Below the pieces are notes generated by a model, which saw only the letters and a list, made by a program, of their open reading frames with translations, did no database searches and was not told the DNA's origin. From NCBI GenBank assembly GCA_049969855.1, contig JBMFOB010000004.1, positions 1-64,000 of the forward strand: a stretch of DNA of 64,000 bases, written 5' to 3'. A program made the position numbers and the translations under genes. Below, in pieces: positions 5,249-34,665 of this stretch. This DNA is from Candidatus Bathyarchaeia archaeon (GTDB lineage Archaea; Thermoproteota; Bathyarchaeia; Bathyarchaeales; Bathycorpusculaceae). Every line of letters starts with the position of its first letter. Positions within the stretch are counted from its first letter, which is position 1.

Positions 5249-5290
5249 ACGGCAAATATAAATTCTGTCGCCTCCTTCTTAGTAAGCAAG

Positions 5291-5998
5291 GTGAAAAGTT
5301 TGAAAATTATTGCAGCGGATTCTTCTGCGGCAATATTGAACAGCAAGTTTGAACCATTATTTATTGTGGCAGCAGCATCAGTTTTAGTGAACCCGCCTTA
5401 TAAAGAGCCAAGCATGTGTTTGGCTGAACCAATTTTTGCGAACGCATCCAACGGACATGGGGTTATTGTGCATGAGGCGGAACTTTGTAAAGAATTATTA
5501 GAAAAAGTGAAGGCTGATTCTGTGCATTTGGACATGTCTCTTGGAGCGGTTCCTCTGGAGCAGTTGTCGCCAATTCAGTTTTCAAACATGAGAATCTCCA
5601 ACAAGGCGAAGCGTAACCTTATAGGGATTCTGCCTAAACTTAGAAAAATTGCTGGCGAAATCACACAAAAATATGGAGTTGAAGTCTTAGCCATAGGAAA
5701 AGAAAGCATCCCCATAAGGATTGCAGAGCTAACAGCTGGAGCCCACGCAATCTTGTATGCATGCGAAAAAGCCGTAAAAGAAAATCAGACTGTTCTTTTG
5801 GGTTTACCGTCTAAATGTCAGCATATACTTTCAGAAAATAGAGTTTACCTTTGCTCTCTTATGCTTGCTGAACATGACGTGAGAGGTTATGCAGAAGACA
5901 CGAAAGAGATTTTGAAAAAAGTTAATATCACAGACATGTTAAATCCAATTGCAAGAGGCTTCAGAATCCTAAAAATAACGCCAAAACAATTAACATAA
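5291..5998 (+). CDS. DUF4152-like conserved archaeal protein
   Basis: IIAADSSAAIL, VxPPY, HLDMSLG, GKESIPIRIAELTAG pattern recalled from this family. Confidence 0.6.
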   Translation: MKSLKIIAADSSAAILNSKFEPLFIVAAASVLVNPPYKEPSMCLAEPIFANASNGHGVIVHEAELCKELLEKVKADSVHLDMSLGAVPLEQLSPIQFSNMRISNKAKRNLIGILPKLRKIAGEITQKYGVEVLAIGKESIPIRIAELTAGAHAILYACEKAVKENQTVLLGLPSKCQHILSENRVYLCSLMLAEHDVRGYAEDTKEILKKVNITDMLNPIARGFRILKITPKQLT

Positions 5999-6012
5999 AT
6001 GGTGATTGCCAT

Positions 6013-6561
6013 ATGAGTTTTGAATTCTGGAAAAACGCTTCACCTCTCGTCAGAAGAATAATAACAATTGCTCTCGTTTTCATTTTTGCCGTAATCATAA
6101 CGACTGTGGGAACATGGGCACCTATTGAAGAGCAAGAAGCAAATGAAATTAACAACGAACTTAACCAAACAATTGATTCATTAAAAGCAAATGATGCATT
6201 GCTTCAATACATTTTTGGAAACAATTTTATGTTTTCCCTAATAATGTTTGTACCCATAATTGGTGTTGTCTTCGGAGCTTATGTACTCTACAACACTGGA
6301 GCTGTTATAGCCGCAACTGCCATTTCCAACCAAGTTCCTCCAGCCCTAAACCTAATTGCTTTATTTTTAACACCTATTTTTTGGCTTGAGTTCATAGCCT
6401 ATTCAACTGCGATGGCTGAAAGCATTTGGTTAACCCGTCGCTTATGGCAACGCAGAGGTAAACATGAACTCGTAAATGCATGCAAGTTCATTTCAGTTTG
6501 CGCCGTAATTCTTTTGGTGGCTGCAATTATAGAAACATTGATGATTTATTCAGCTGCTTGA
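6013..6561 (+). CDS. Stage II sporulation protein M (DUF95)-like membrane protein
   Basis: Multi-TM; IFGNN, NTG, WLEF.AY, LLVAAIIE motifs. Confidence 0.75.
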   Translation: MSFEFWKNASPLVRRIITIALVFIFAVIITTVGTWAPIEEQEANEINNELNQTIDSLKANDALLQYIFGNNFMFSLIMFVPIIGVVFGAYVLYNTGAVIAATAISNQVPPALNLIALFLTPIFWLEFIAYSTAMAESIWLTRRLWQRRGKHELVNACKFISVCAVILLVAAIIETLMIYSAA

Positions 6562-6578
6562 TTTCATAAAATCCATTT

Positions 6579-7451
6579 TTATTTGCTTTTTCCATAAATC
6601 CTTATAATTTCTAGGCTTATGTCTAACGCTTTTGGACTATGTGTTATTTCGCCAAGGCTTACAATGTCTACTCCAGTTGAGGCAAATGCAATAATGTTCT
6701 CTGTTGTTATTCCACCGCTGGCTTCAAGCATCACTTTCCCAAAAAAGCCCTCCTTTTTTAAAAGGTTAATTGCCTTCTCTATTTGCTTTGGTGAAAAATT
6801 GTCCAGCATTATTATGTCTGCTCCAGCCTTAGCTGCGGTTAGCGCATCATTTGCGTTTGTAATTTCAACCTCTATTTTCTTGCCAAAAGATACTTTTTCT
6901 TTTACCTTTTTAACAGCCTTTTCAACGTTCCCAGCCACTTTAATATGGTTATCTTTAATCAAAACCATATCGTCCAGATGAAGCCTATGAGTGTCACCGC
7001 CCCCTAACATGACAGCCTTTTTATCAAAATATAGAAGCCCCGGCGCTGTTTTTCGTGTGCATGCAACCTTAGTCTTGAATCCACTTTTTTGAAGCGTTTC
7101 CACCAGTTTTCTTGTGATTGTTGCTATGCCACTCATCCGTGAAAGAATATTCAATAGTGTACGTTCAGTTGAAAGTATGGCTTGTGCATCTCCAGAAACT
7201 TTCATTAAAACTTGCTTTTCCCTTATTTTTTCTCCATCAGAAACCAAAGCTTCAACTTTAATCCCCAAACTTTCCAGAAGAATTTTTGCTTCCTCAACTC
7301 CAGCAATAACTCCAGTCTCTTTTGCTATTATCTCTGCCTCTGCCTGGGTTTCGGGTGGAACAATTAATGTTGTGGTTGTGTCTCCTTGCCCGATGTCTTC
7401 TGCAAGCATTTTTTGGAGTTTTTCTTCCAAAATTTTACGCGGTACGAACAT
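6579..7451 (-). CDS. nadC: Nicotinate-nucleotide diphosphorylase (carboxylating)
   Basis: EDIGQGDTTT, TRKTAPG, HRLHLDD..LIKDNH, MLDN, EASGGI. Confidence 0.97.
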   Translation of the reverse strand: MFVPRKILEEKLQKMLAEDIGQGDTTTTLIVPPETQAEAEIIAKETGVIAGVEEAKILLESLGIKVEALVSDGEKIREKQVLMKVSGDAQAILSTERTLLNILSRMSGIATITRKLVETLQKSGFKTKVACTRKTAPGLLYFDKKAVMLGGGDTHRLHLDDMVLIKDNHIKVAGNVEKAVKKVKEKVSFGKKIEVEITNANDALTAAKAGADIIMLDNFSPKQIEKAINLLKKEGFFGKVMLEASGGITTENIIAFASTGVDIVSLGEITHSPKALDISLEIIRIYGKSK

Positions 7452-25390: not shown

Positions 25391-28300
25391 TTGTTAAAAT
25401 TTAAGGGGAATTTTTTGTCCTCTCGTGAATCTCTACAAAGCGGTAGATACGTTACTCTCAAAAAATTAGGAGAAGGCGGGAAAGGCATCGTATATAAGGC
25501 TAGAGACACTGCTTTGAACCGTATTGTTGCAATTAAGATGCTTAAAAGTGCAGTTTTAACTGAAGAGGCCTATTCCCGTTTTATGCGGGAAGCGCAGGCG
25601 GTAGCGAAACTTAATCATCCAAATATTGTTTCAATACATGACATCGGCAAAGAAGATGGAAAACAATTTTTTGTCCTCGAGTTTGTTGATGGAATGAGTC
25701 TACGCGAGCTTATGGGAACATATCCAGAAGGCAAATGCGACATAAAAACTGTCCTAAGAATAGGCATAGATGTTTGCTCTGCGCTTCAGTATGCGCATTC
25801 TCAAAACATTCTCCATCGAGACATTAAACCTGAAAACATCATGATCACACAGGAAGGCAATGTGAAACTGATGGATTTCGGTTTGGCAAAAATGCTGGGG
25901 CAGCCTAGGATAACGCAAGAAGGAGTAATAGTGGGCACAGTTGCCTATGTTGCGCCTGAAGTAGCATTAGGAAAAGGTGCTGACGCAAGATCTGACCTTT
26001 ACTCCCTTGGTGCAGTACTTTATGAAGCTGTCACTGGAAGACCACCTTTCATAGGCGAAGACTCCGTAAAAATTATCTTCAGTCACATTCATGACTACCC
26101 AATTTCGCCGAACAAGCTGAATTCGAAGGTTCCGCAGGCTTTGGCAGAGTGTATCATGAAGCTTCTGGAAAAGGAGCCAACGAAAAGATATCAGAGTGCA
26201 GCGGATTTGCTTAATGTGCTAAGAGAAATAGCTGAAGGCTTCTTAAGGGAGGTTTATGTTCCTTCTCATAAAACAAGCGTTGTGGTTCCACCTCAACGTC
26301 CTTTTGCTATGCGAGAGACTCAGCTTATCGATAGAGTTGAAGAGATGAATTTTCTCAGAGAGACTGTTGATAGGGCAGTGCGTCGTGAAGGTGGCCTTGT
26401 TTTTCTTTGTGGGGAGGCTGGAATTGGAAAGACAAGGTTAACTAGGGAACTAGACGCTTATGCACGCTTGCGTGGAATGCAAGTTTTATACGGAAGGTGT
26501 CCAGCGTTGTTCAGAATGGATGGTGTGCCTCCTTATGTTCTGTGGAATGAGGTGATAAAAGATTATTTGCAAGTCTGCACTCCTGAGCAGTTGTATAAAG
26601 TGATTGGTTTCTATCCGAGCGAGGTTTGTAAGTTAGTTCCAGAAATCAGGCAGAAGCTTGGTACAATTCCTCAGTCTCTACCTATAAGTCCAGAGCAGGA
26701 GCGTGACAGACTTTTTGAAGCGGTTTCCCAGTTCATGATTAACCTTTCTAAAGAGACTCCTTTGCTGATTATTCTTGATGATTTGCAATGGACTGATCAG
26801 TCCTCGCTTTTGTTACTGCATTATTTGGCTCGGGGTGTTTACCGTGAGCCTTTGCTACTTTTGGGTGCGTACCGTGACACTGACATTGACGAACGGCATC
26901 CTTTGTCTCCTGTTTTGACAGAATTGAATAGGGAACGTTTGCTTCAATCCGCTCAATTGAAACGCATGTCTTTCAACGATGTTCAGGAGATGATTAAGCA
27001 GATTTTGGACCAAGACGATGTTCCAAGAGAGTTTTGTGAACTTGTTTATGAGAAAACGAGGGGTAATCCCTTCTTTGTTGAAGAAGTGATAAAGTCTCTC
27101 AAGGAAGAAGAGGTTATCTTTCGTGAGGAGAATCGTTGGAAAATTAAGGAAGTTTCTAAAATTGAATTTCCTAAGACTGTTAAGAGTATTATAAAGGCGA
27201 GAATAAGTCGGCTTGATGAGGACTGCCAGAATATTTTGACTTTAGCTTCTTTTGTTGGGAACGATTTCTCTTTTGAAGCAATATGTGGGGTCATCAATAT
27301 TGAAGAGAATAAATTGCTTGAGCTGATGGAGAAGTTGCTTAAAACTGGACTGGTTAAGGAGAGGGTTGTTCGCGGAGAAGATGTTTATTATTTTGCTGAT
27401 GTGATAGTGAGGGATGTTGTGCACGAGGAAGTTAGCCATTTAAGGCATAAGAAACTTCACAGTAGTGTTGGTAACGCCTTAGAGAAGGTTTACGCTAAAA
27501 AGATTGACGAACACTTTGGCGAGCTTGCATATCATTTTCTCGAAGGCAGTGACAAAGAAAAGGCACTTGATTATTTCTTGAAAGCAGGAGAAAAAGCACA
27601 GACAGTATATGCCCACAATGAAGCCTTATCTTATCTCCAACATGCGCTTGAACTGCTTAAAGAGAAGAGGGCCAGCCCAGAACAAAAGGTTCCCGTAGTT
27701 GAGAAACTCGGTGACCTTAACTATTGGATAGGAAAGCCTGATGCTGGAATGGAATACTATGGCAAAGCGTTGACTTTGTGGGATCAGCTTGAAGACAAGA
27801 AGAATATCGCAAGGCTCCATACTAGAATGGCATTGATGCTTTGGCACGGATTGGGTGACAAGGTTAAAGCTTCCGAACATCATCATATGGCTTTGGAGAT
27901 ACTTGAGAAAGAACCCGAAAGCGTGGAGTTGGCTAGCTTGTACGAAGATGTTTCACACATGCTTTGGCGAACTGGCAAATCTGATGAAGCCTTGATTTGG
28001 ACACAGAAAGCCCTTGCACTGGCAGAGAAATTAAACGCCCCCGACGTTATAGCACGTTGTTACAACAATCTAGGCGTGCTTAAACTGAAGTCTGGAGAAT
28101 TCGACAAGGCTGCAGAATACCTTAGGCAAGGATTAAAAATAGACCTTGAGAACAAACTTCTAGGTGATGCTCTCACCTTTTACAATAACCTCTGCACCCT
28201 TTACCTCTCGACAGGAGAATTTCAGAAGTTGTTCGAGACTGCCCAAGAAGGCTCCGATATGGCCAAGAAAGTTGGTGCTTTGTATCCCTTGGCTTGGCTT

Positions 28301-29074
28301 GATATGATGCTGTGTGCTTCTTATGGATACAGGGGAGACCTGCAAAAAGCCCTTTCCCTAGCTGAGGACAATCTCGCATTGGTCAAGCGAATCAAATATA
28401 CAGCTTTTATAGGAAGCGCATTGGGTACACTTGGCACATGTTACCGTTATCTTGGAGAATGGGATAAGAGCCTTAATTACTTTAAGGAGTCCTTTGACCT
28501 TGCTAGGGAAGCTGGAGAGTATCAAGAAACTGGAAATGCCGCCTCAGAGCTTGGAATGCTATATATGGAAATGGAAGACTACGATGAAGCTGAGAAATAC
28601 CTCAATGAAAGCGACAGCATTTTTGAGAAAGCAGGAGATACAGACAGTCAAATGACTACGCCACTACCAGCTCTTTCAAGACTATATTTGGAAAAAGGTG
28701 AAGTCGATAAAGCCACAGCTCTAATTGAGAAAATCTACGAATATGCAACAAAAGCCAAAAATCGATTGGCTATGTGTGATGCTGAGTTGTTGAAAGCAAT
28801 GCTTTTTAGGGAAAAGAAAAGCTGGGGGCAATCTATACAGCACTTTGAGAAAAGCCTTCAGGAAGCCAAATCCCTAAATATCCAAAATTGGCATGTCTTC
28901 CAATACGCAGAAATCCTATATGAATACGGTTTAATGTACCTCGAAAGAAACGAAGAAGGCGATAAAGAAAAGGCCTACTCGCTTCTCGATCAAGCTCTGA
29001 TGATATACCAGAAAGCCGATGCGAAAAAGAGAATAGAAAAGGTAATAGCGAAAAAGAAACTGCTCACGGCTTAG
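25391..29074 (+). CDS. Ser/Thr protein kinase - STAND (AAA_16) ATPase - TPR multidomain protein
   Basis: Kinase GEGGKG/VAIK/HRDIKPEN/DFG/APE; Walker A GEAGIGKT, Walker B LIILDDLQW, GNPFF; C-terminal TPRs; likely start TTG 25415. Confidence 0.92.
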   Translation: MLKFKGNFLSSRESLQSGRYVTLKKLGEGGKGIVYKARDTALNRIVAIKMLKSAVLTEEAYSRFMREAQAVAKLNHPNIVSIHDIGKEDGKQFFVLEFVDGMSLRELMGTYPEGKCDIKTVLRIGIDVCSALQYAHSQNILHRDIKPENIMITQEGNVKLMDFGLAKMLGQPRITQEGVIVGTVAYVAPEVALGKGADARSDLYSLGAVLYEAVTGRPPFIGEDSVKIIFSHIHDYPISPNKLNSKVPQALAECIMKLLEKEPTKRYQSAADLLNVLREIAEGFLREVYVPSHKTSVVVPPQRPFAMRETQLIDRVEEMNFLRETVDRAVRREGGLVFLCGEAGIGKTRLTRELDAYARLRGMQVLYGRCPALFRMDGVPPYVLWNEVIKDYLQVCTPEQLYKVIGFYPSEVCKLVPEIRQKLGTIPQSLPISPEQERDRLFEAVSQFMINLSKETPLLIILDDLQWTDQSSLLLLHYLARGVYREPLLLLGAYRDTDIDERHPLSPVLTELNRERLLQSAQLKRMSFNDVQEMIKQILDQDDVPREFCELVYEKTRGNPFFVEEVIKSLKEEEVIFREENRWKIKEVSKIEFPKTVKSIIKARISRLDEDCQNILTLASFVGNDFSFEAICGVINIEENKLLELMEKLLKTGLVKERVVRGEDVYYFADVIVRDVVHEEVSHLRHKKLHSSVGNALEKVYAKKIDEHFGELAYHFLEGSDKEKALDYFLKAGEKAQTVYAHNEALSYLQHALELLKEKRASPEQKVPVVEKLGDLNYWIGKPDAGMEYYGKALTLWDQLEDKKNIARLHTRMALMLWHGLGDKVKASEHHHMALEILEKEPESVELASLYEDVSHMLWRTGKSDEALIWTQKALALAEKLNAPDVIARCYNNLGVLKLKSGEFDKAAEYLRQGLKIDLENKLLGDALTFYNNLCTLYLSTGEFQKLFETAQEGSDMAKKVGALYPLAWLDMMLCASYGYRGDLQKALSLAEDNLALVKRIKYTAFIGSALGTLGTCYRYLGEWDKSLNYFKESFDLAREAGEYQETGNAASELGMLYMEMEDYDEAEKYLNESDSIFEKAGDTDSQMTTPLPALSRLYLEKGEVDKATALIEKIYEYATKAKNRLAMCDAELLKAMLFREKKSWGQSIQHFEKSLQEAKSLNIQNWHVFQYAEILYEYGLMYLERNEEGDKEKAYSLLDQALMIYQKADAKKRIEKVIAKKKLLTA

Positions 29075-29078
29075 GCTT

Positions 29079-29465
29079 TTAACATCTCTCTACTCTTATT
29101 TTCGTTCCGCTTTTCACGTTACTGAACAATTCAAGGTTTTTTGTTACTTGTCCGAGGATGTTTACTGGGCTGTATGGCTGTGATTCTCCATAGAATATGC
29201 ATATGGCGCTTCCCATGGGCCAAAAGGCTATTGCACCCTTTTCAACGGCACTTTTTGCTTTTTCTTCTCCCATTTTAATCGGTGTTTCAAAATAGACTTC
29301 CTCTTTCCATAGGGCGGCTCTGCCTTCTATTGGAAGTTTTCTAACAATCATGTCCACGGTTCTTGGCGCCAAAAAGCGTACGAGCTCTCCTTCCGCTTCC
29401 CCTAATCCTTCAATTACAAATTTTATTTTTACACGCGAAATCTCTTGCTCTTCACTGCTCACCAT
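29079..29465 (-). CDS. Cyclophilin-like fold protein (DUF369)
   Basis: APRTV...LPI, WKEEVYF, GAIAFWP.G.AICIFYG, SPVNILG. Confidence 0.85.
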   Translation of the reverse strand: MVSSEEQEISRVKIKFVIEGLGEAEGELVRFLAPRTVDMIVRKLPIEGRAALWKEEVYFETPIKMGEEKAKSAVEKGAIAFWPMGSAICIFYGESQPYSPVNILGQVTKNLELFSNVKSGTKIRVERC

Positions 29466-30789
29466 TTTCCACCTTTTTGAGAAATTCTTCCAATATTTGT
29501 TCAAGCGTTACTGGTCCTAACACTTGCAGTTCATATTTCACTCGCACTGTTGGCTTGTTCAGCGTCATAACCCTTCTCAAGTCGATGGGTGTTCCTATCA
29601 CAACAACATCGCAAGGCGTTCGGTCAATTGTTTCTTTAAGTTCGGCTATTTGTTTCTCGCCATAACCCAAAGCGGGAAGGATTGGTCCTAAATGGGCATA
29701 TTTTTTATAAGCTTCCCTTATTGAACCGACAGCGTATGGTCTCGGATCAACAATTTCGCCTGCTCCAGACTTTTTCGCCATTATAGTTGCAGCTCCATAG
29801 GGCATGTTTCCATGCGTCAATGTTGGACCGTCCTCGATTACTAGGACACGTTTTCCCTTAATCAGTTCAGGGTTGTCGGCTGTTACTGGCGAAGCTGCTT
29901 CCAATATTATGGCGTTTGGATTTACGCTTCTGACGTTTTCTTTAACTTTTTTCACGTTTTCTGGTTCTGCTGTGTCAACTTTGTTTATTATCACAACATT
30001 TGCCATTCTCAAATTAGCCTCTCCAGGATGATAAGTCAATTCGTGCCCTGCCCTATGGGGGTCAGCTACAACTATGTGCAAGTCTGGTTTGTAGAATGGT
30101 AAGTCGTTGTTGCCTCCATCCCAAACGATTATATCCGCCTCCTTTTCAGCTTCACGCAGAATCTTTTCATAGTCGACGCCTGCGTAAACAATTATGCCGT
30201 TGTCGATGTGGGGTTCGTATTCCTCTCTTTCTTCTATTGTGCATTCGTATTTGTCTAAATCTTCATATGAGGCGAATCTTTGGCAAATCTGCTTTGTTAA
30301 GTCGCCGTAGGGCATTGGGTGTCTAATGGCGACAACTCTTAAACCCTTGTTTTTGAGAATTTTTGCGACTTTTCTTGAAGTTTGGCTTTTTCCTGAACCA
30401 GTTCTAACAGCACCCACTGAAACAATTGGAACTTTTGCGTTCAGCATTGTTGTCTTCGGTCCCATTAAGCGGAAGTCTGCTCCGTTTGCCAATGCAATAG
30501 AAGCCTTGTGCATGACATATTCGTGAGAGACATCGCTGTAGGCGAAAACAACTTGGTCAACATCATGTTGCCGTATTAGTTTGGGCAGGATTTCTTCTGG
30601 ATAAATTGGTATACCCTTTGGATAATTTGGACCTGCAAGCTCTGCAGGGTAAATTCTGCCTTCTATGCCGGGAATCTGCGTAGCTGTGAAGGCGATAACT
30701 TCATAGGCGTCATTGCTTCGGAAGTAAACATTGAAGTTGTGGAAGTCCCTACCCGCCGCTCCCATTATAATAACCTTAACTTTCTCCAT
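29452..30789 (-). CDS. cDPG-synthetase-like P-loop protein; candidate arginine synthetase (ArcE family)
   Basis: IMGAAGRDFHNFN, AFTATQIP, AVRTGSGKS, RHPMPYG, EEREEYEPH, WDGGNND, EDGPTLTHG. Confidence 0.8.
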   Translation of the reverse strand: MEKVKVIIMGAAGRDFHNFNVYFRSNDAYEVIAFTATQIPGIEGRIYPAELAGPNYPKGIPIYPEEILPKLIRQHDVDQVVFAYSDVSHEYVMHKASIALANGADFRLMGPKTTMLNAKVPIVSVGAVRTGSGKSQTSRKVAKILKNKGLRVVAIRHPMPYGDLTKQICQRFASYEDLDKYECTIEEREEYEPHIDNGIIVYAGVDYEKILREAEKEADIIVWDGGNNDLPFYKPDLHIVVADPHRAGHELTYHPGEANLRMANVVIINKVDTAEPENVKKVKENVRSVNPNAIILEAASPVTADNPELIKGKRVLVIEDGPTLTHGNMPYGAATIMAKKSGAGEIVDPRPYAVGSIREAYKKYAHLGPILPALGYGEKQIAELKETIDRTPCDVVVIGTPIDLRRVMTLNKPTVRVKYELQVLGPVTLEQILEEFLKKVENGEQ

Positions 30790-30870
30790 AACACATTTCT
30801 CCTTGTGAGAATCTCTGACAAGTGGGTTCAATACTACTTAATCATTCCATATAAACCTTAACATGCAATC

Positions 30871-32058: not shown

Positions 32059-32682
32059 TTAAATGGTTGGAAAAGTGTTTAAACTTTTGATTCTGTTTAG
32101 GAATTCCTCCATTTCTTTTTCCACTTCTTCCTTTCTCTTCGTCAAAAACTCTAACTCCTCAGATATTTCGTCTAACCATTCTTTCATGGCTAAATTGCAT
32201 TCTTCCCGTGTCATTTTTGCAAGATATTTGGAAACATCTTCTGGATTGCGTTTTCTTAACAAGCGAAGGGGACAATTTATTCTTTGAAATTTTGAAAAAG
32301 AGAAGAAATGTCTGGTTGAACGTGGCTTCATGAGACGTCCACTAAGCCCTGCTGAGAGAACCTTATCAACGGTTATTTCTTCGTCGGGATTGCCTATGTA
32401 ACGGTGAATCCTTCTCCTTCCAACTCGTATTTTTGGATTTTGGAAGGCATCAACAAGTATGACTGGTATTAGTGTGTAGCCGAGGCTTTTTAAGGCGAGC
32501 CACCGGTGCATTCCGTCTAGGATTACATGGGTTTTTTCATCTGCTATTATTGGATACTTTAGTAAGCCGTCTCTAAGGATTTCTTGTTTAAGCAGTTCCA
32601 AATATAATGGAGAGCCTTTTTCGTGGGGTTTCAAAGAGTTTATTGGAAGCAAAACAATTTTTAAATCCTGTTTTTCCGTCAT
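32059..32682 (-). CDS. ParB/Srx-fold protein, SbnI/SerK-like (candidate free-serine kinase)
   Basis: L.PHE, I..DG....PI, VILDGMHRW.ALK.LG...IPV, GRLM.P.STRH; start ATG 32682. Confidence 0.7.
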   Translation of the reverse strand: MTEKQDLKIVLLPINSLKPHEKGSPLYLELLKQEILRDGLLKYPIIADEKTHVILDGMHRWLALKSLGYTLIPVILVDAFQNPKIRVGRRRIHRYIGNPDEEITVDKVLSAGLSGRLMKPRSTRHFFSFSKFQRINCPLRLLRKRNPEDVSKYLAKMTREECNLAMKEWLDEISEELEFLTKRKEEVEKEMEEFLNRIKSLNTFPTI

Positions 32683-32692
32683 GTGCTTTACC

Positions 32693-34048
32693 TTAGTGGC
32701 TAAAGGTTGAAACTTCGATTTTTTCAGGTTCATAATCTACCAGTTTGCCGCTGAGAAACTGCTCGTAAGCCGTTAGGTCAAGTAAGCCGTGTCCACTGTA
32801 ATTCATTGCAATTATTTTTTTCTCGCCTGTTTTCTTGCATTTTAGTGCTTCATCTATTACATATTTTAGGCTGTGGGCGGTTTCGGGAGCTATTATTAAT
32901 CCTTCTGTTTGGGCTAGAATCTTTGCGGCTTCGAAAACTTCATTTTGACTGTAAGCAACAGAGCGCATATACCCCTTATATATTAGGTATGACATCAAAG
33001 GCGCCATCCCGTGATATCGCAATCCGCCAGCATGTATGGGTGGACAAGCATATCCATGTCCAATTGTTAACATTTTCAGAAGTGGCGTCATTTTGCCTGT
33101 GTCTCCATAATCGTATGTGTAGATGCCTCTTGTTGTGTGGGGAACGGCTTTTGATTCGCAAGCAACAAATTCTGTTTTTGTTTTGCCTTTGAGCTTGTCC
33201 ATCATGAAGGGGAATGCGAAGCCTGCATAGTTTGAGCCTCCGCCTATGCATCCGCAAATTATGTTTGGGTAAATGTCCATAAGTTCGAATTGTTTTTTTG
33301 CTTCTAAGCCTACTATTGTTTGGTGCATGAGAACGTGATTCAGCACGGAGCCTAAAGAGTACCGTGTATCTTCGTTTGTAAGCGCATCTTCAATGGCTTC
33401 TGTGATGGCTATTCCCAAAGTTCCAGGATTGTCTGGGTTTTCTTTGAGCAGTTTTCTGCCGAAATTTGTTTGTTCGCTTGGTGATGGGAACATTTCTGCG
33501 CCGTAAATCTGTGCTATGATTCTTCTGCCTGGCTTTTGGTAATAGCTTGTTTTAACCATGTAGATTCGGCATTTCAGTCCGAAAATGGTGCATGAAAAGG
33601 CTAGGGCTGTGCCCCACTGTCCTGCTCCGGTTTCAGTCACTAGTCTTTTGATTCCTTGTTGTTTGTTGTAGTAGGCTTGTGCAAGGGCGGTATTAGTTTT
33701 GTGGCTTCCTGTTGGGCTGAAGTTTTCGCATTTGAAGTATATCTGGGCTGGTGTTTTCAAATAATTTTCTAGGCGTTTTGCTCTGTAAAGTGGTGTTGGA
33801 CGTGGAAGCCTTAGGTATGCATCGAGTATTTCATCCGGTATTTTTATGTAGCGTTCTGTGGAAACTTCTTGTTTTATGAGTTCTTTTGCGAATATTCTCT
33901 CAAGTAGTTGTGGGCTTATGGGTTTTAGGGTTGTTGGGTCCAATGGTGGTGGTAATGGTTCTGGGAGATCTGCTTGGATATTGTACCATTCTCTGGGTAT
34001 TTCTTCGGGATTTAACTGTGTGAAGCTTTCATTAATTTTTGAATGCAT
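32693..34048 (-). CDS. trpB2: Tryptophan synthase beta, TrpB2 type
   Basis: IPREWYNI, RPTPLYRA, GSHKTN (PLP Lys), TETGAGQWG, LGSVLNHV, GGGSN, HAGGLRYHG, APET.H, SGHG. Confidence 0.95.
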   Translation of the reverse strand: MHSKINESFTQLNPEEIPREWYNIQADLPEPLPPPLDPTTLKPISPQLLERIFAKELIKQEVSTERYIKIPDEILDAYLRLPRPTPLYRAKRLENYLKTPAQIYFKCENFSPTGSHKTNTALAQAYYNKQQGIKRLVTETGAGQWGTALAFSCTIFGLKCRIYMVKTSYYQKPGRRIIAQIYGAEMFPSPSEQTNFGRKLLKENPDNPGTLGIAITEAIEDALTNEDTRYSLGSVLNHVLMHQTIVGLEAKKQFELMDIYPNIICGCIGGGSNYAGFAFPFMMDKLKGKTKTEFVACESKAVPHTTRGIYTYDYGDTGKMTPLLKMLTIGHGYACPPIHAGGLRYHGMAPLMSYLIYKGYMRSVAYSQNEVFEAAKILAQTEGLIIAPETAHSLKYVIDEALKCKKTGEKKIIAMNYSGHGLLDLTAYEQFLSGKLVDYEPEKIEVSTFSH

Positions 34049-34161
34049 ACAGATGTCCCCTTATGTATATTTTTGTTCATTTGCGTATGATATTATACTC
34101 AAGACAACACGAACATATTTATACTTTACTGCACAAAAAAGTACATGAAGGAATCTGTAAC

Positions 34162-34665
34162 ATGTGGAGCAAAATTGCAAAATGCCTAGAAGACTATCCA
34201 GAACGGCTCAAAGTAGCTCGAGTTCTCGTAGAAAATGGACTGAGCGTGAGAAACGGAAAAATCTATCTTAACGAAATTGAAGTTCCACCGGTTCGCATAG
34301 CAAGAGTTGCTGGAGTAGACAGAAGAACAGTGAACGAGACGCTGAATGCTATCCGCACAAACCGCGAACTTAAGCCAATTTTTGAAGGGTTAAGGTCTGC
34401 TGGGCATTCTTTAAAGGAGATTGCTAAACATTTGGATTTGGGAGTTGTTGAAATAACTCCTGTTGATGCACGAATTCCGGGCATACTTGCAAGCTCCGCC
34501 TCAATTCTTGCGAATGCTGGTTTGAGTATAAGGCAGGCGATAGTTGATGATCCAGAGTTGTCGCCTGAGCCTAAATTAACTTTGATTGTTGAGAGAAAAA
34601 TTCCAGGCGAATTGATTCCAGAATTTCTAAAAATAAAGGGAGTGGCTAAAGTTTCAATTTATTAA
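34162..34665 (+). CDS. ACT-domain regulator of amino-acid metabolism (COG2150-like)
   Basis: MW..I...YP..VAR..GL, IARVAGVDRRTV HTH, C-terminal ACT (PGILA...SIRQAI.DDP); start ATG 34162. Confidence 0.85.
   Translation: MWSKIAKCLEDYPERLKVARVLVENGLSVRNGKIYLNEIEVPPVRIARVAGVDRRTVNETLNAIRTNRELKPIFEGLRSAGHSLKEIAKHLDLGVVEITPVDARIPGILASSASILANAGLSIRQAIVDDPELSPEPKLTLIVERKIPGELIPEFLKIKGVAKVSIY

Follow-up and report, generated by a model that had tools for sequence, protein, structure and literature searches.

A trpB2-linked gene related to SerK and SbnI in Bathyarchaeia suggests a phosphoserine-fed, TrpY-controlled module for indole salvage

A tryptophan synthase gene, a small gene of the ParB/Srx fold and a divergent regulator gene lie side by side in the genome of Candidatus Bathyarchaeia archaeon (assembly GCA_049969855.1). 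We analyzed positions 1 to 64,000 of the forward strand of contig JBMFOB010000004.1, here called the window. On the minus strand, trpB2 (32693..34048) encodes a stand-alone, TrpB2-type tryptophan synthase beta chain of 451 amino acids (aa) that depends on pyridoxal phosphate (PLP). Behind it lies the small gene (32059..32682, minus strand; 207 aa), whose product is predicted by homology to SerK and SbnI to be a free L-serine kinase. On the plus strand, trpY (34162..34665) encodes a transcription regulator of 167 aa and diverges from trpB2 across a control region of 113 nucleotides (nt; 34049..34161). The pairing of the two minus-strand genes, as candidate source and user of O-phosphoserine, is the subject of this study.

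The two minus-strand genes are closely packed. An initial annotation, made from the sequence alone, had placed a ParB/Srx-fold gene 10 nt behind trpB2, and both the list of open reading frames (ORFs) and the spacer sequence confirm this arrangement. Two ORFs are present, one at 32693-34048 (451 aa) and one at 32059-32733 (224 aa), the latter with an internal ATG at 32682 that yields the 207-aa product; its stop codon is at 32059-32061. The trpB2 stop, TAA (32695-32693), is followed by the 10-nt spacer (32683..32692, minus strand), which contains AGGT, a possible ribosome-binding site, and then by ATG 32682. Homologues of the small gene begin at the position equivalent to 32682 or 5-6 codons upstream, which marks 32682 as the conserved start. 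The alternative 224-aa reading from ATG 32733, which overlaps trpB2, is not conserved, because two of the related loci described below (L002 and L004) have no earlier start at all. The short spacer suggests that trpB2 and the kinase-like gene are co-transcribed.

The trpB2 product is a TrpB2-type enzyme. It scores 686 bits against NCBIfam model PRK12391 (cut-off 366) and 674 bits against TIGR01415 (cut-off 519), and its closest matches in the Protein Data Bank (PDB) are the TrpB2 structures 6hul, 4qys and 6hte (E 1e-146 to 6e-139). Lys117 (GSHK; codon 33698..33700, minus strand) aligns with the PLP-binding lysine motif GAHK of TrpB1-type chains, is invariant in our TrpB2 alignment (A6), and is presumably the PLP lysine, as established for TrpB. 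The Arg of AGGLRYHG had been noted to replace the Asp of TrpB1, and the structures agree: Arg344 (codon 33017..33019, minus strand) stands opposite the Asp of the TrpB1-type chains 5ey5 and 1x1q, and 6hul, 4qys and 6hte share the Arg. Arg344 is also invariant in 30/30 aligned TrpB2 sequences that adjoin ParB-like genes. An Arg at this position reportedly binds the phosphate of O-phospho-L-serine (Busch et al. 2014). TrpB2 enzymes are cited as users of O-phospho-L-serine in a passage of PMC11917138, and a passage of PMC11535334 gives a KM for indole of <1 uM for TrpB2 and reports that a TrpB2 homologue gave indole cross-feeding.

The divergent gene encodes a member of the TrpY family. TrpY is the tryptophan-responsive repressor of Methanothermobacter. 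The initial annotation had recognized a divergent regulator with helix-turn-helix (HTH) and ACT domains; the regulator is indeed present and can be classified more specifically, since the product (ATG 34162) exceeds the cut-off of the TrpY-family model NF053754 (189.9 bits, cut-off 180). This match spans residues 2-164 of 167 and profile positions 1-163 of 163, and Pfam gives weak HTH and ACT matches only. Of 74 related loci (L001-L074, described below), 67 have a TrpY match in divergent orientation ahead of trpB2; in the remaining seven, the contig ends <=112 nt from the trpB2 match. Together with the window, this gives 68 trpY/trpB2 intergenic regions, with lengths of 98-120 nt. The sequence AAGTATAA occurs in 67 of the 68 and ATGTAC in 66. 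The window's control region carries a conserved A/T-rich, TATA-like stretch and GTAC-type boxes. We infer that these boxes at 34049-34161 may act as operators, and that TrpY would control both trpB2 and the kinase-like gene.

The small protein groups with the free serine kinases SerK and SbnI. Its top-ranked NCBIfam match is SerK (E 1.6e-12, 47.1 bits; cut-off 380), with SbnI at E 1.9e-8 (34 bits; cut-off 350) and Noc at only 5e-3; the SerK and SbnI matches are confined to residues 7-82. A phmmer search of the PDB returned SbnI (E 1e-7), SerK (2e-6) and PF0380, with HE and DGVHR matched in the SbnI N-domain, and no ParB chain among its 11 hits (E up to 1). A profile built from the window protein together with short ("mini") and extended relatives (A2) matches the Tk-SerK structure 5x0b at E 1e-27 and SbnI at E 7e-16; the best ParB/Noc chain reaches only 2.6e-4. 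These profile and sequence comparisons bear out the claim that the small protein is not a partition protein. Public records do name its close homologues "ParB N-terminal domain-containing protein", and Pfam ParB_N matches weakly at 18.9 bits, which could point to a DNA-binding, partition or nuclease protein of ParB type with no link to tryptophan. We regard that identity as extremely improbable: the ParB_N score lies under the gathering score of 26.3, neither TIGR00180 (parB_part) nor an HTH or other DNA-binding domain is among the protein's Pfam and NCBIfam matches, its gene is flanked by trpB2 and a DegT-type aminotransferase gene, and no parA gene is adjacent.

The match to SerK falls into two stretches. 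Positions 7-107 of profile A2 pair with SerK 14-118 and positions 97-135 with SerK 203-241; therefore, the family corresponds to a SerK core without the middle domain (SerK ~119-202). The three motifs first read from the translation as PHE, DGMHR and P.STRH are present as KPHE (E21), LDGMHR (D56-R60) and PRSTRH (P120-H125). In the profile alignment, "phE" falls on KPHEQ of 5x0b, KPHQQ of 5x0j and KPHAQ of 5x0e, so that Glu21 (codon 32620..32622, minus strand) is the counterpart of the glutamate that is changed in the SerK mutant entries 5x0j and 5x0e. DGMHR (32503..32517, minus strand) aligns with DGVHR of SbnI and DGHHR of SerK, and PRSTRHFF (P120-F127; 32302..32325, minus strand) is the counterpart of the C-terminal SPKTTRH segment of SerK. 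Across the 74 related loci, the motifs are kept wherever they are covered: P19-H20-E21 in 72/72, D56-R60 in 73/73 and T123-R124-H125-F126 in 72/72. The dN/dS ratio of the small gene, relative to the window, is 0.05-0.14 in seven computable pairs; three more pairs were saturated.

The window protein belongs to an extended form of the family. An exhaustive search of 1.84 billion representatives found 1211 relatives at E up to 0.001, which by length and motif spacing fall into three architectures: forms of ~250-300 aa, in which ~150 residues separate the two motifs; minis of ~125-170 aa; and extended forms of ~200 aa, including the window protein, with a charged C-terminal tail. In the window protein, this tail comprises residues 143-207 (32062..32256, minus strand) and is probably helical (alignments A1 and A2). 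It is absent from SerK and from the ~130-aa minis, and is common only to extended relatives, in which E172, E176 and E186 are nearly invariant; against the PDB it gives only a weak prefoldin-like match (E 0.21). Matches in the ESM Atlas were limited to the small protein's own Bathyarchaeial clusters. One candidate fusion of TrpB2 and kinase (P0129, 266 aa) was rejected, as its sequence reads as a frameshifted, error-laden ORF.

This architecture could also suit a nucleotide-binding protein without catalytic activity. Such a switch, scaffold or allosteric partner might activate or stabilize TrpB2 through the tail, or act on DNA together with TrpY, much as SbnI has a second role as regulator. 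In this clade, the SerK middle domain and a lysine common to the family have been lost and the charged helical tail has been acquired, NCBIfam calls SbnI a bifunctional regulator and synthase, and a passage of a survey of the ParB fold describes it as a switch or scaffold in many proteins (PMC12704722). Nonetheless, we consider a non-catalytic role unlikely. Strong purifying selection keeps the catalytic Glu, like every motif of phosphate or nucleotide type, free of change, the Pfam and NCBIfam searches show neither an HTH nor any other DNA-binding domain in the small protein, and relatives are fused to, or adjoin, enzymes that use phosphorylated serine-like substrates.

The kinase-like gene is tightly linked to trpB2 within Bathyarchaeia. 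A scan of one genome per species gave 83 confirmed relatives, of which 80 were kept; the loci L001-L074 carry the extended form at 64-95% identity, and all but three belong to records titled Bathyarchaeia or Bathyarchaeota. The initial annotation had staked its proposal on conservation of the adjacency in a synteny survey. We find trpB2 directly upstream and on the same strand in 74/74 of these loci, and the adjacency recurs with shorter relatives from other phyla (20/80 loci, see below). In 62 of these 74, the kinase-like gene has its nearest in-frame start -20 to +36 nt from the trpB2 stop, a range that runs from a 20-nt overlap to a short spacer. The downstream DegT-type gene behaves differently: it follows at <=300 nt in 48 loci and at a greater distance in 8, was not found in 13 despite a flank of >=1.5 kb, and could not be judged in 5. 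Hence, DegT is displaced or missing in 21 of the 69 loci with enough flank, whereas trpB2 is missing in none. The kinase-like gene is thus bound more closely to trpB2 (74/74) than to its downstream neighbor (48/69).

The pairing appears to outlast changes of the trpB2 gene itself. In five loci (L005, L011, L012, L013 and L027), trpB2 is just 53-58% identical to that of the window while the kinase-like gene is 77-83% identical, which looks like an in-situ exchange of the trpB2 type with the pairing preserved. The TrpY and kinase-like genes still flank trpB2 in these loci, at 77-86% identity to the window's, and the spacer before the kinase-like gene is longer (48-211 nt). Separately, L045, from a record titled Candidatus Acidiferrales bacterium, carries a Bathyarchaeial HdrA-TrpY-TrpB2-kinase-GTPase locus at 67-82% identity and pairs with the Bathyarchaeial L049 in our tree (97*); it is probably a mis-binned archaeal contig.

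Few Bathyarchaeia carry the extended form. We drew an even sample of 121 Bathyarchaeia genomes that are >=80% complete, including the window's own. TrpB2 exceeds its cut-off in 90 of these, and the extended kinase form occurs in seven. It adjoins TrpB2 in six of the seven holders; in the seventh (G036), there is only a fragment, on another contig. No second match at E up to 1e-10 was found in any of the seven. In another genome (G075), a mini form immediately precedes trpB2, and ~50 of the 121 contain an ORF of ~290 aa whose match is limited to the N-domain. Wherever the gene occurs, then, the pairing is conserved, but it is not general to Bathyarchaeial TrpB2.

Holders of the extended form lack a detectable trpA. 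This gene was found in 50 of the 121 sampled genomes, that is, in 0/7 holders and 50/114 of the others. Within one family (f1), trpA is present in 10 of 12 other sampled genomes, and the two without it (G008 and G067) are exactly the two holders. Since related genomes are not independent, this anticorrelation is a pattern and not a statistical test. Three f1 sister genomes without the kinase-like gene (G032, G099 and G105) have kept TrpY, a type-2 trpB2 and DegT at the same locus. In these sisters, an ATP-NAD-kinase-family gene (~378 aa) lies between trpB2 and DegT (L257:5521-6660, L262:2674-3807). We dropped this gene as a candidate functional replacement, as a copy with 51% identity lies on another contig of the window's own genome (G000:C8:22084-23193). 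In two genomes that belong to one genus, a SerK-like gene of ~290-300 aa lies ~3.2 kb from TrpY/trpB2, close by without adjoining the pair (G100:C14, L263:1799-2071 and 5254-7160; G115:C1).

The window's genome has no detected de novo tryptophan pathway. The assembly (1.28 Mb, 49 contigs) is 93% complete, and we found in it no trpA, TrpB1, indole-3-glycerol phosphate synthase (IGPS) or chorismate-binding TrpE over cut-off; the searches for all four were positive in 14 control genomes. The absence of trpA that had been reported for the window thus extends to the whole assembly. It follows that any indole must come from outside the cell. The assembly also contains no second SerK-like gene. Searches for SerB, SepRS and CysK/M gave nothing over cut-off, the narrow TIGR01364 model detected no SerC, and a class-V aminotransferase match is weak. 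As SerB, SepRS and CysK/M were not found, TrpB2 is the only evident user of O-phosphoserine.

The same gene content might fit a kinase that runs mainly in reverse. In this case, O-phosphoserine and ADP would yield serine and ATP, replacing the undetected phosphoserine phosphatase, a role proposed for the SbnI-like DUF1015 proteins termed "SerBK". The genome has two SerA-like genes in addition to lacking a detected SerB, and a passage of PMC13759103 indicates that SerBK proteins can replace serB despite their kinase-like appearance. The same paper describes the reverse reaction as thermodynamically unfavorable. Furthermore, one would not expect a gene for serine synthesis to answer to a tryptophan regulator, or to accompany trpB2 in every extended-form locus, and the pairs of trpB2 and mini genes under T-box control in Bacteria (see below) would be left unexplained. 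We consider a mainly reverse reaction very unlikely.

The association with TrpB2 recurs far outside Bathyarchaeia. A 19-sequence mini alignment led to 245 confirmed loci; we kept the best 80. In 20 of these, a TrpB2 with AGGLRYH lies directly beside the mini gene, in records from Bacillota (including Symbiobacterium), Caldisericota, Ignavibacteriota (Ignavibacteriales), Patescibacteria, Nitrososphaerota and Thermoproteota. One such locus (L157) has a divergent TrpY as well. In three others (L105, L146 and L166), Rfam places a T-box leader immediately before trpB2; in L146 and L166, the expected specifier place reads GAA-UGG-A, as judged by eye and not annotated by the model. A quick tree (112 rows, 127 columns), in which many forks are open, recovers the Bathyarchaeial clade (99*) and, distant from it, the main bacterial TrpB2-linked clade (99*). 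Thus, two or more distant parts of the family show an association with TrpB2.

Other minis neighbor different PLP enzymes. For the remaining 60 mini loci, we examined, on either side, the longest ORF at a distance of <=1.2 kb, 111 ORFs in all. Fourteen of these have a PALP domain; by NCBIfam, 11 are CysK/M-like, two are threonine synthases and one is TrpB1. Nine of the 11 CysK/M-like neighbors are of a long form (~390-420 aa) from Thermoproteota, and all of them fall under curated cut-offs. One further mini neighbor, in L132, is a SepCysS over cut-off. Among these loci, mini paralogues of other Bathyarchaeia lie near threonine synthase (L137:2246-3244, L168:2771-3430) or SepCysS (L132:2735-3916), which suggests that members of the family may also serve O-phosphohomoserine or Sep-tRNA pathways. 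A natural fusion, P0147 (582 aa), joins two ParB-like N-domains to a CysK/M-like PLP domain. We read its sequence as a "Rosetta stone" that links a serine kinase with an O-phosphoserine-using enzyme.

The closest relatives of the Bathyarchaeial clade occur in a different setting. In the tree, its sister is an extended, non-Bathyarchaeial clade (98*; the sister relationship has support 93, not starred), comprising 18 loci (L174-L191) from Woesearchaeota, Nanoarchaeota, Saccharibacteria, Campylobacterota, Bacteroidota and others. We scanned 14 of these loci with Pfam: a nucleotidyltransferase domain is fused or adjacent in 10, an Asp/Glu-racemase-family gene occurs in 10, an S-adenosylmethionine-dependent methyltransferase in eight, a cytidine diphosphate (CDP)-alcohol phosphatidyltransferase in six, and a TagF-like glycerophosphotransferase in three. 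Glycosyltransferase, NeuB and DegT genes surround the cassettes (e.g., L186:3581-6739, L184:3631-6969, L179:2143-4634). A related route has been proposed for the Type A flagellin glycan of C. difficile, in which, according to a passage of PMC10714395, phosphothreonine is converted to CDP-threonine and transferred to N-acetylglucosamine, with N-methylation at some step. By analogy, the sister-clade cassette looks like an undescribed, kinase-started counterpart of this proposed route, and the resemblance suggests a free hydroxy amino acid as the substrate of the extended clade.

These cassettes raise the possibility that the window protein is a small-molecule kinase with another substrate or consumer. 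Candidate substrates would be L-threonine, homoserine, D-serine or a sugar-linked alcohol; the product could enter glycan decoration with DegT, and the adjacency of trpB2 would then be inherited synteny. The cassette genes of the sister clade and their resemblance to the CDP-threonine route (a passage of PMC10714395) point this way, as do the DegT gene within 300 nt in most judgeable Bathyarchaeial loci and the threonine synthases near the mini paralogues of L137 and L168. However, cytidylyltransferase, racemase and phosphotransferase genes are not present at the window locus, and DegT, unlike trpB2, is displaced or missing in some loci. DegT also keeps its place in sister genomes without the kinase-like gene. 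Moreover, at positions 20, 63, 64, 67 and 91, the Bathyarchaeial clade shares residues with the TrpB2- and CysK/M-linked minis, and these are changed in the glycan clade. On balance, we judge a different substrate or consumer to be quite improbable.

Taken together, the evidence favors a phosphoserine-fed module. We consider it probable, at moderate confidence, that the locus is a TrpY-controlled unit for indole salvage, in which serine would be converted to phosphoserine and phosphoserine to tryptophan. This is the reading first put forward in the initial annotation, and it is supported by the grouping with SerK and SbnI, the adjacency to trpB2 and the TrpY-family regulator. For the kinase-like protein, all claims of function rest on homology, motif conservation and gene context.

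Several observations weigh against this module. The small protein scores far under the equivalog cut-offs of both SerK and SbnI. About 84 SerK residues (~119-202) are missing from it, so that it does not have the full two-domain architecture of ~240-255 residues. At column 105 (SerK K205), Lys is found in 100% of the mini and extended groups and is replaced by Val/Ile in the Bathyarchaeial clade, which has also lost the tyrosine of the family's VDY motif. A SerK-like protein is reported in a passage of PMC12704722 to bind CTP rather than ATP, which would make a switch-like role of the fold possible. The whole region from an HdrA-like gene to a cyclophilin-like gene is syntenic in many loci, so part of the 74/74 adjacency may reflect shared ancestry across the class. 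The small number of holders among the 121 sampled genomes indicates that the coupling is not obligatory. TrpB2 was found beside the kinase-like gene in 0/18 loci of the sister clade, which might act on threonine or a different hydroxy amino acid. Finally, the two SerA-like dehydrogenases of the assembly, which are short and score ~300 bits, under cut-off, make a route to O-phosphoserine from 3-phosphoglycerate possible.

The proposed module would work as follows. When tryptophan is scarce, the TrpY-family repressor would leave the control region, and trpB2 would be co-transcribed with the kinase-like gene. The kinase-like protein would then turn free L-serine into O-phospho-L-serine; Glu21 would serve as catalytic base, and ATP, ADP and CTP are candidate phosphate donors. 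TrpB2 would combine O-phosphoserine, held at its phosphate by Arg344, with indole from the environment to form L-tryptophan. The phosphate bond spent on serine would provide a better leaving group and so favor the capture of indole. This fits a genome without a detected de novo tryptophan pathway. The kinase activity, its substrate and its donor, as well as the use of O-phosphoserine by the window's TrpB2, are predictions from sequence.

We also tentatively propose a wider scheme, which we think rather unlikely to hold as a whole. The kinase-like protein and TrpB2 might form a physical "activated-serine tryptophan synthase", in which the clade-specific tail would dock the partners and hand over O-phosphoserine; capture of indole would become effectively irreversible, and Bathyarchaeia auxotrophic for tryptophan could live on traces of indole from the environment. 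SerK-core proteins without the middle domain would be general, hitherto overlooked suppliers of O-phosphoserine for TrpB2, archaeal cysteine synthases and SepRS/SepCysS, with an offshoot that feeds glycan decoration by CDP-amino acids.

Other genes of the window were noted in passing. A 459-aa P-loop protein is encoded at 29452-30831 (minus strand); its cobW and MipZ matches are weak, and its sole sequence match in the PDB is cyclic 2,3-diphosphoglycerate synthetase (9sxb, E 1.8e-6, residues 223-336). In most related loci, this gene is accompanied by a cyclophilin-like gene (29079-29504 in the window). A 1227-aa ORF (25391-29074, plus strand) seemingly combines a Ser/Thr protein-kinase-like N-terminus, an AAA/STAND-like ATPase region and TPR-like repeats, as read by eye from the translation. 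Among sequencing runs, one DNA run carries 0.74 of the sampled words, the remaining runs carry <=0.17, and no RNA run was among the listed carriers.

The proposed coupling bears on a gap in the biology of TrpB2. These enzymes have been cited as O-phosphoserine-dependent since 2014, and both the source of the phosphoserine and the conditions under which the enzyme works have been left open. Tryptophan-sensing control (by TrpY, and by T-boxes in some Bacteria), recurrence in distant phyla and enrichment where trpA was not found all back the coupling. If true, it would be the third case of a free serine kinase with a PLP enzyme, after SerK with cysteine synthase and SbnI with SbnA, and it would put the minimal size of a serine-kinase core at ~130 residues. 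Re-annotation would be needed for several hundred proteins now called "ParB N-terminal domain-containing" or "hypothetical", and tryptophan auxotrophy and indole cross-feeding would be predicted differently for uncultured archaea.

We found no earlier description of this coupling. The initial annotation likewise knew of none, and our search of freely available full texts agrees: it returned no paper linking TrpB2 with a serine kinase or ParB-fold gene. The word "tryptophan" is absent from the main texts of the SerK paper (PMC5120207), where TrpB is absent too, and of the 2025 survey of ParB folds (PMC12704722).

The module most closely resembles known pairs of a free serine kinase and a fold-type-II PLP enzyme. 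One likeness is to SbnI-SbnA of the S. aureus staphyloferrin B system (5ujd, 6nr6), where the gene of a ParB-fold serine kinase also lies beside that of an O-phosphoserine-consuming PLP enzyme; the consumer there is SbnA, and here it would be TrpB2. SbnI is reportedly ~254 residues long, including a C-terminal domain, is said to be ATP-dependent, and doubles as a regulator. SerK of T. kodakarensis (TK0378) is described in a passage of Makino 2016 (PMC5120207) as an ADP-dependent free L-serine kinase, whose O-phosphoserine feeds a fold-type-II PLP enzyme of cysteine synthesis. The window protein shares with SerK and PF0380 of Pyrococcus furiosus (5x0b, 1vk1) the ParB/Srx-type core and the KPHE, DGxHR and PKTTRH motifs. 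It differs in lacking the middle domain (~119-202), in its additional C-terminal helical tail, and in its partner, which is TrpB2 under a tryptophan regulator and not a cysteine synthase.

The partner and the control of the module also have known counterparts. TrpB2 enzymes of Sulfolobus/Saccharolobus and Thermotoga (4qys, 6hul, 6hte) have the same AGGLRYHG motif and, according to passages of PMC11917138 and PMC11535334, are O-phosphoserine dependent with a high affinity for indole; those passages name no dedicated source of O-phosphoserine, whereas a kinase-like gene is coupled to trpB2 here. The divergent regulator resembles TrpY of Methanothermobacter in that it exceeds the TrpY-family cut-off over its full length and borders a control region with conserved GTAC-type boxes; its predicted target here is a two-gene salvage unit in a genome without a detected trp operon. 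The likeness to C. difficile is confined to the sister clade, whose cytidylyltransferase, methyltransferase and TagF-like or CDP-alcohol phosphotransferase follow the logic of CD0242, CD0243 and CD0244 in the CD0241-CD0244 route, as set out in a passage of PMC10714395. In place of CD0241, a phosphoserine-phosphatase-like phosphotransferase, the sister clade has a ParB-fold kinase, and the window locus has none of these partner genes. Thus, the design we propose, a free serine kinase joined to a fold-type-II PLP enzyme, is a known one; what would be particular to this locus is the truncated SerK core with its clade-specific tail, the partnership with TrpB2, and the control by TrpY.

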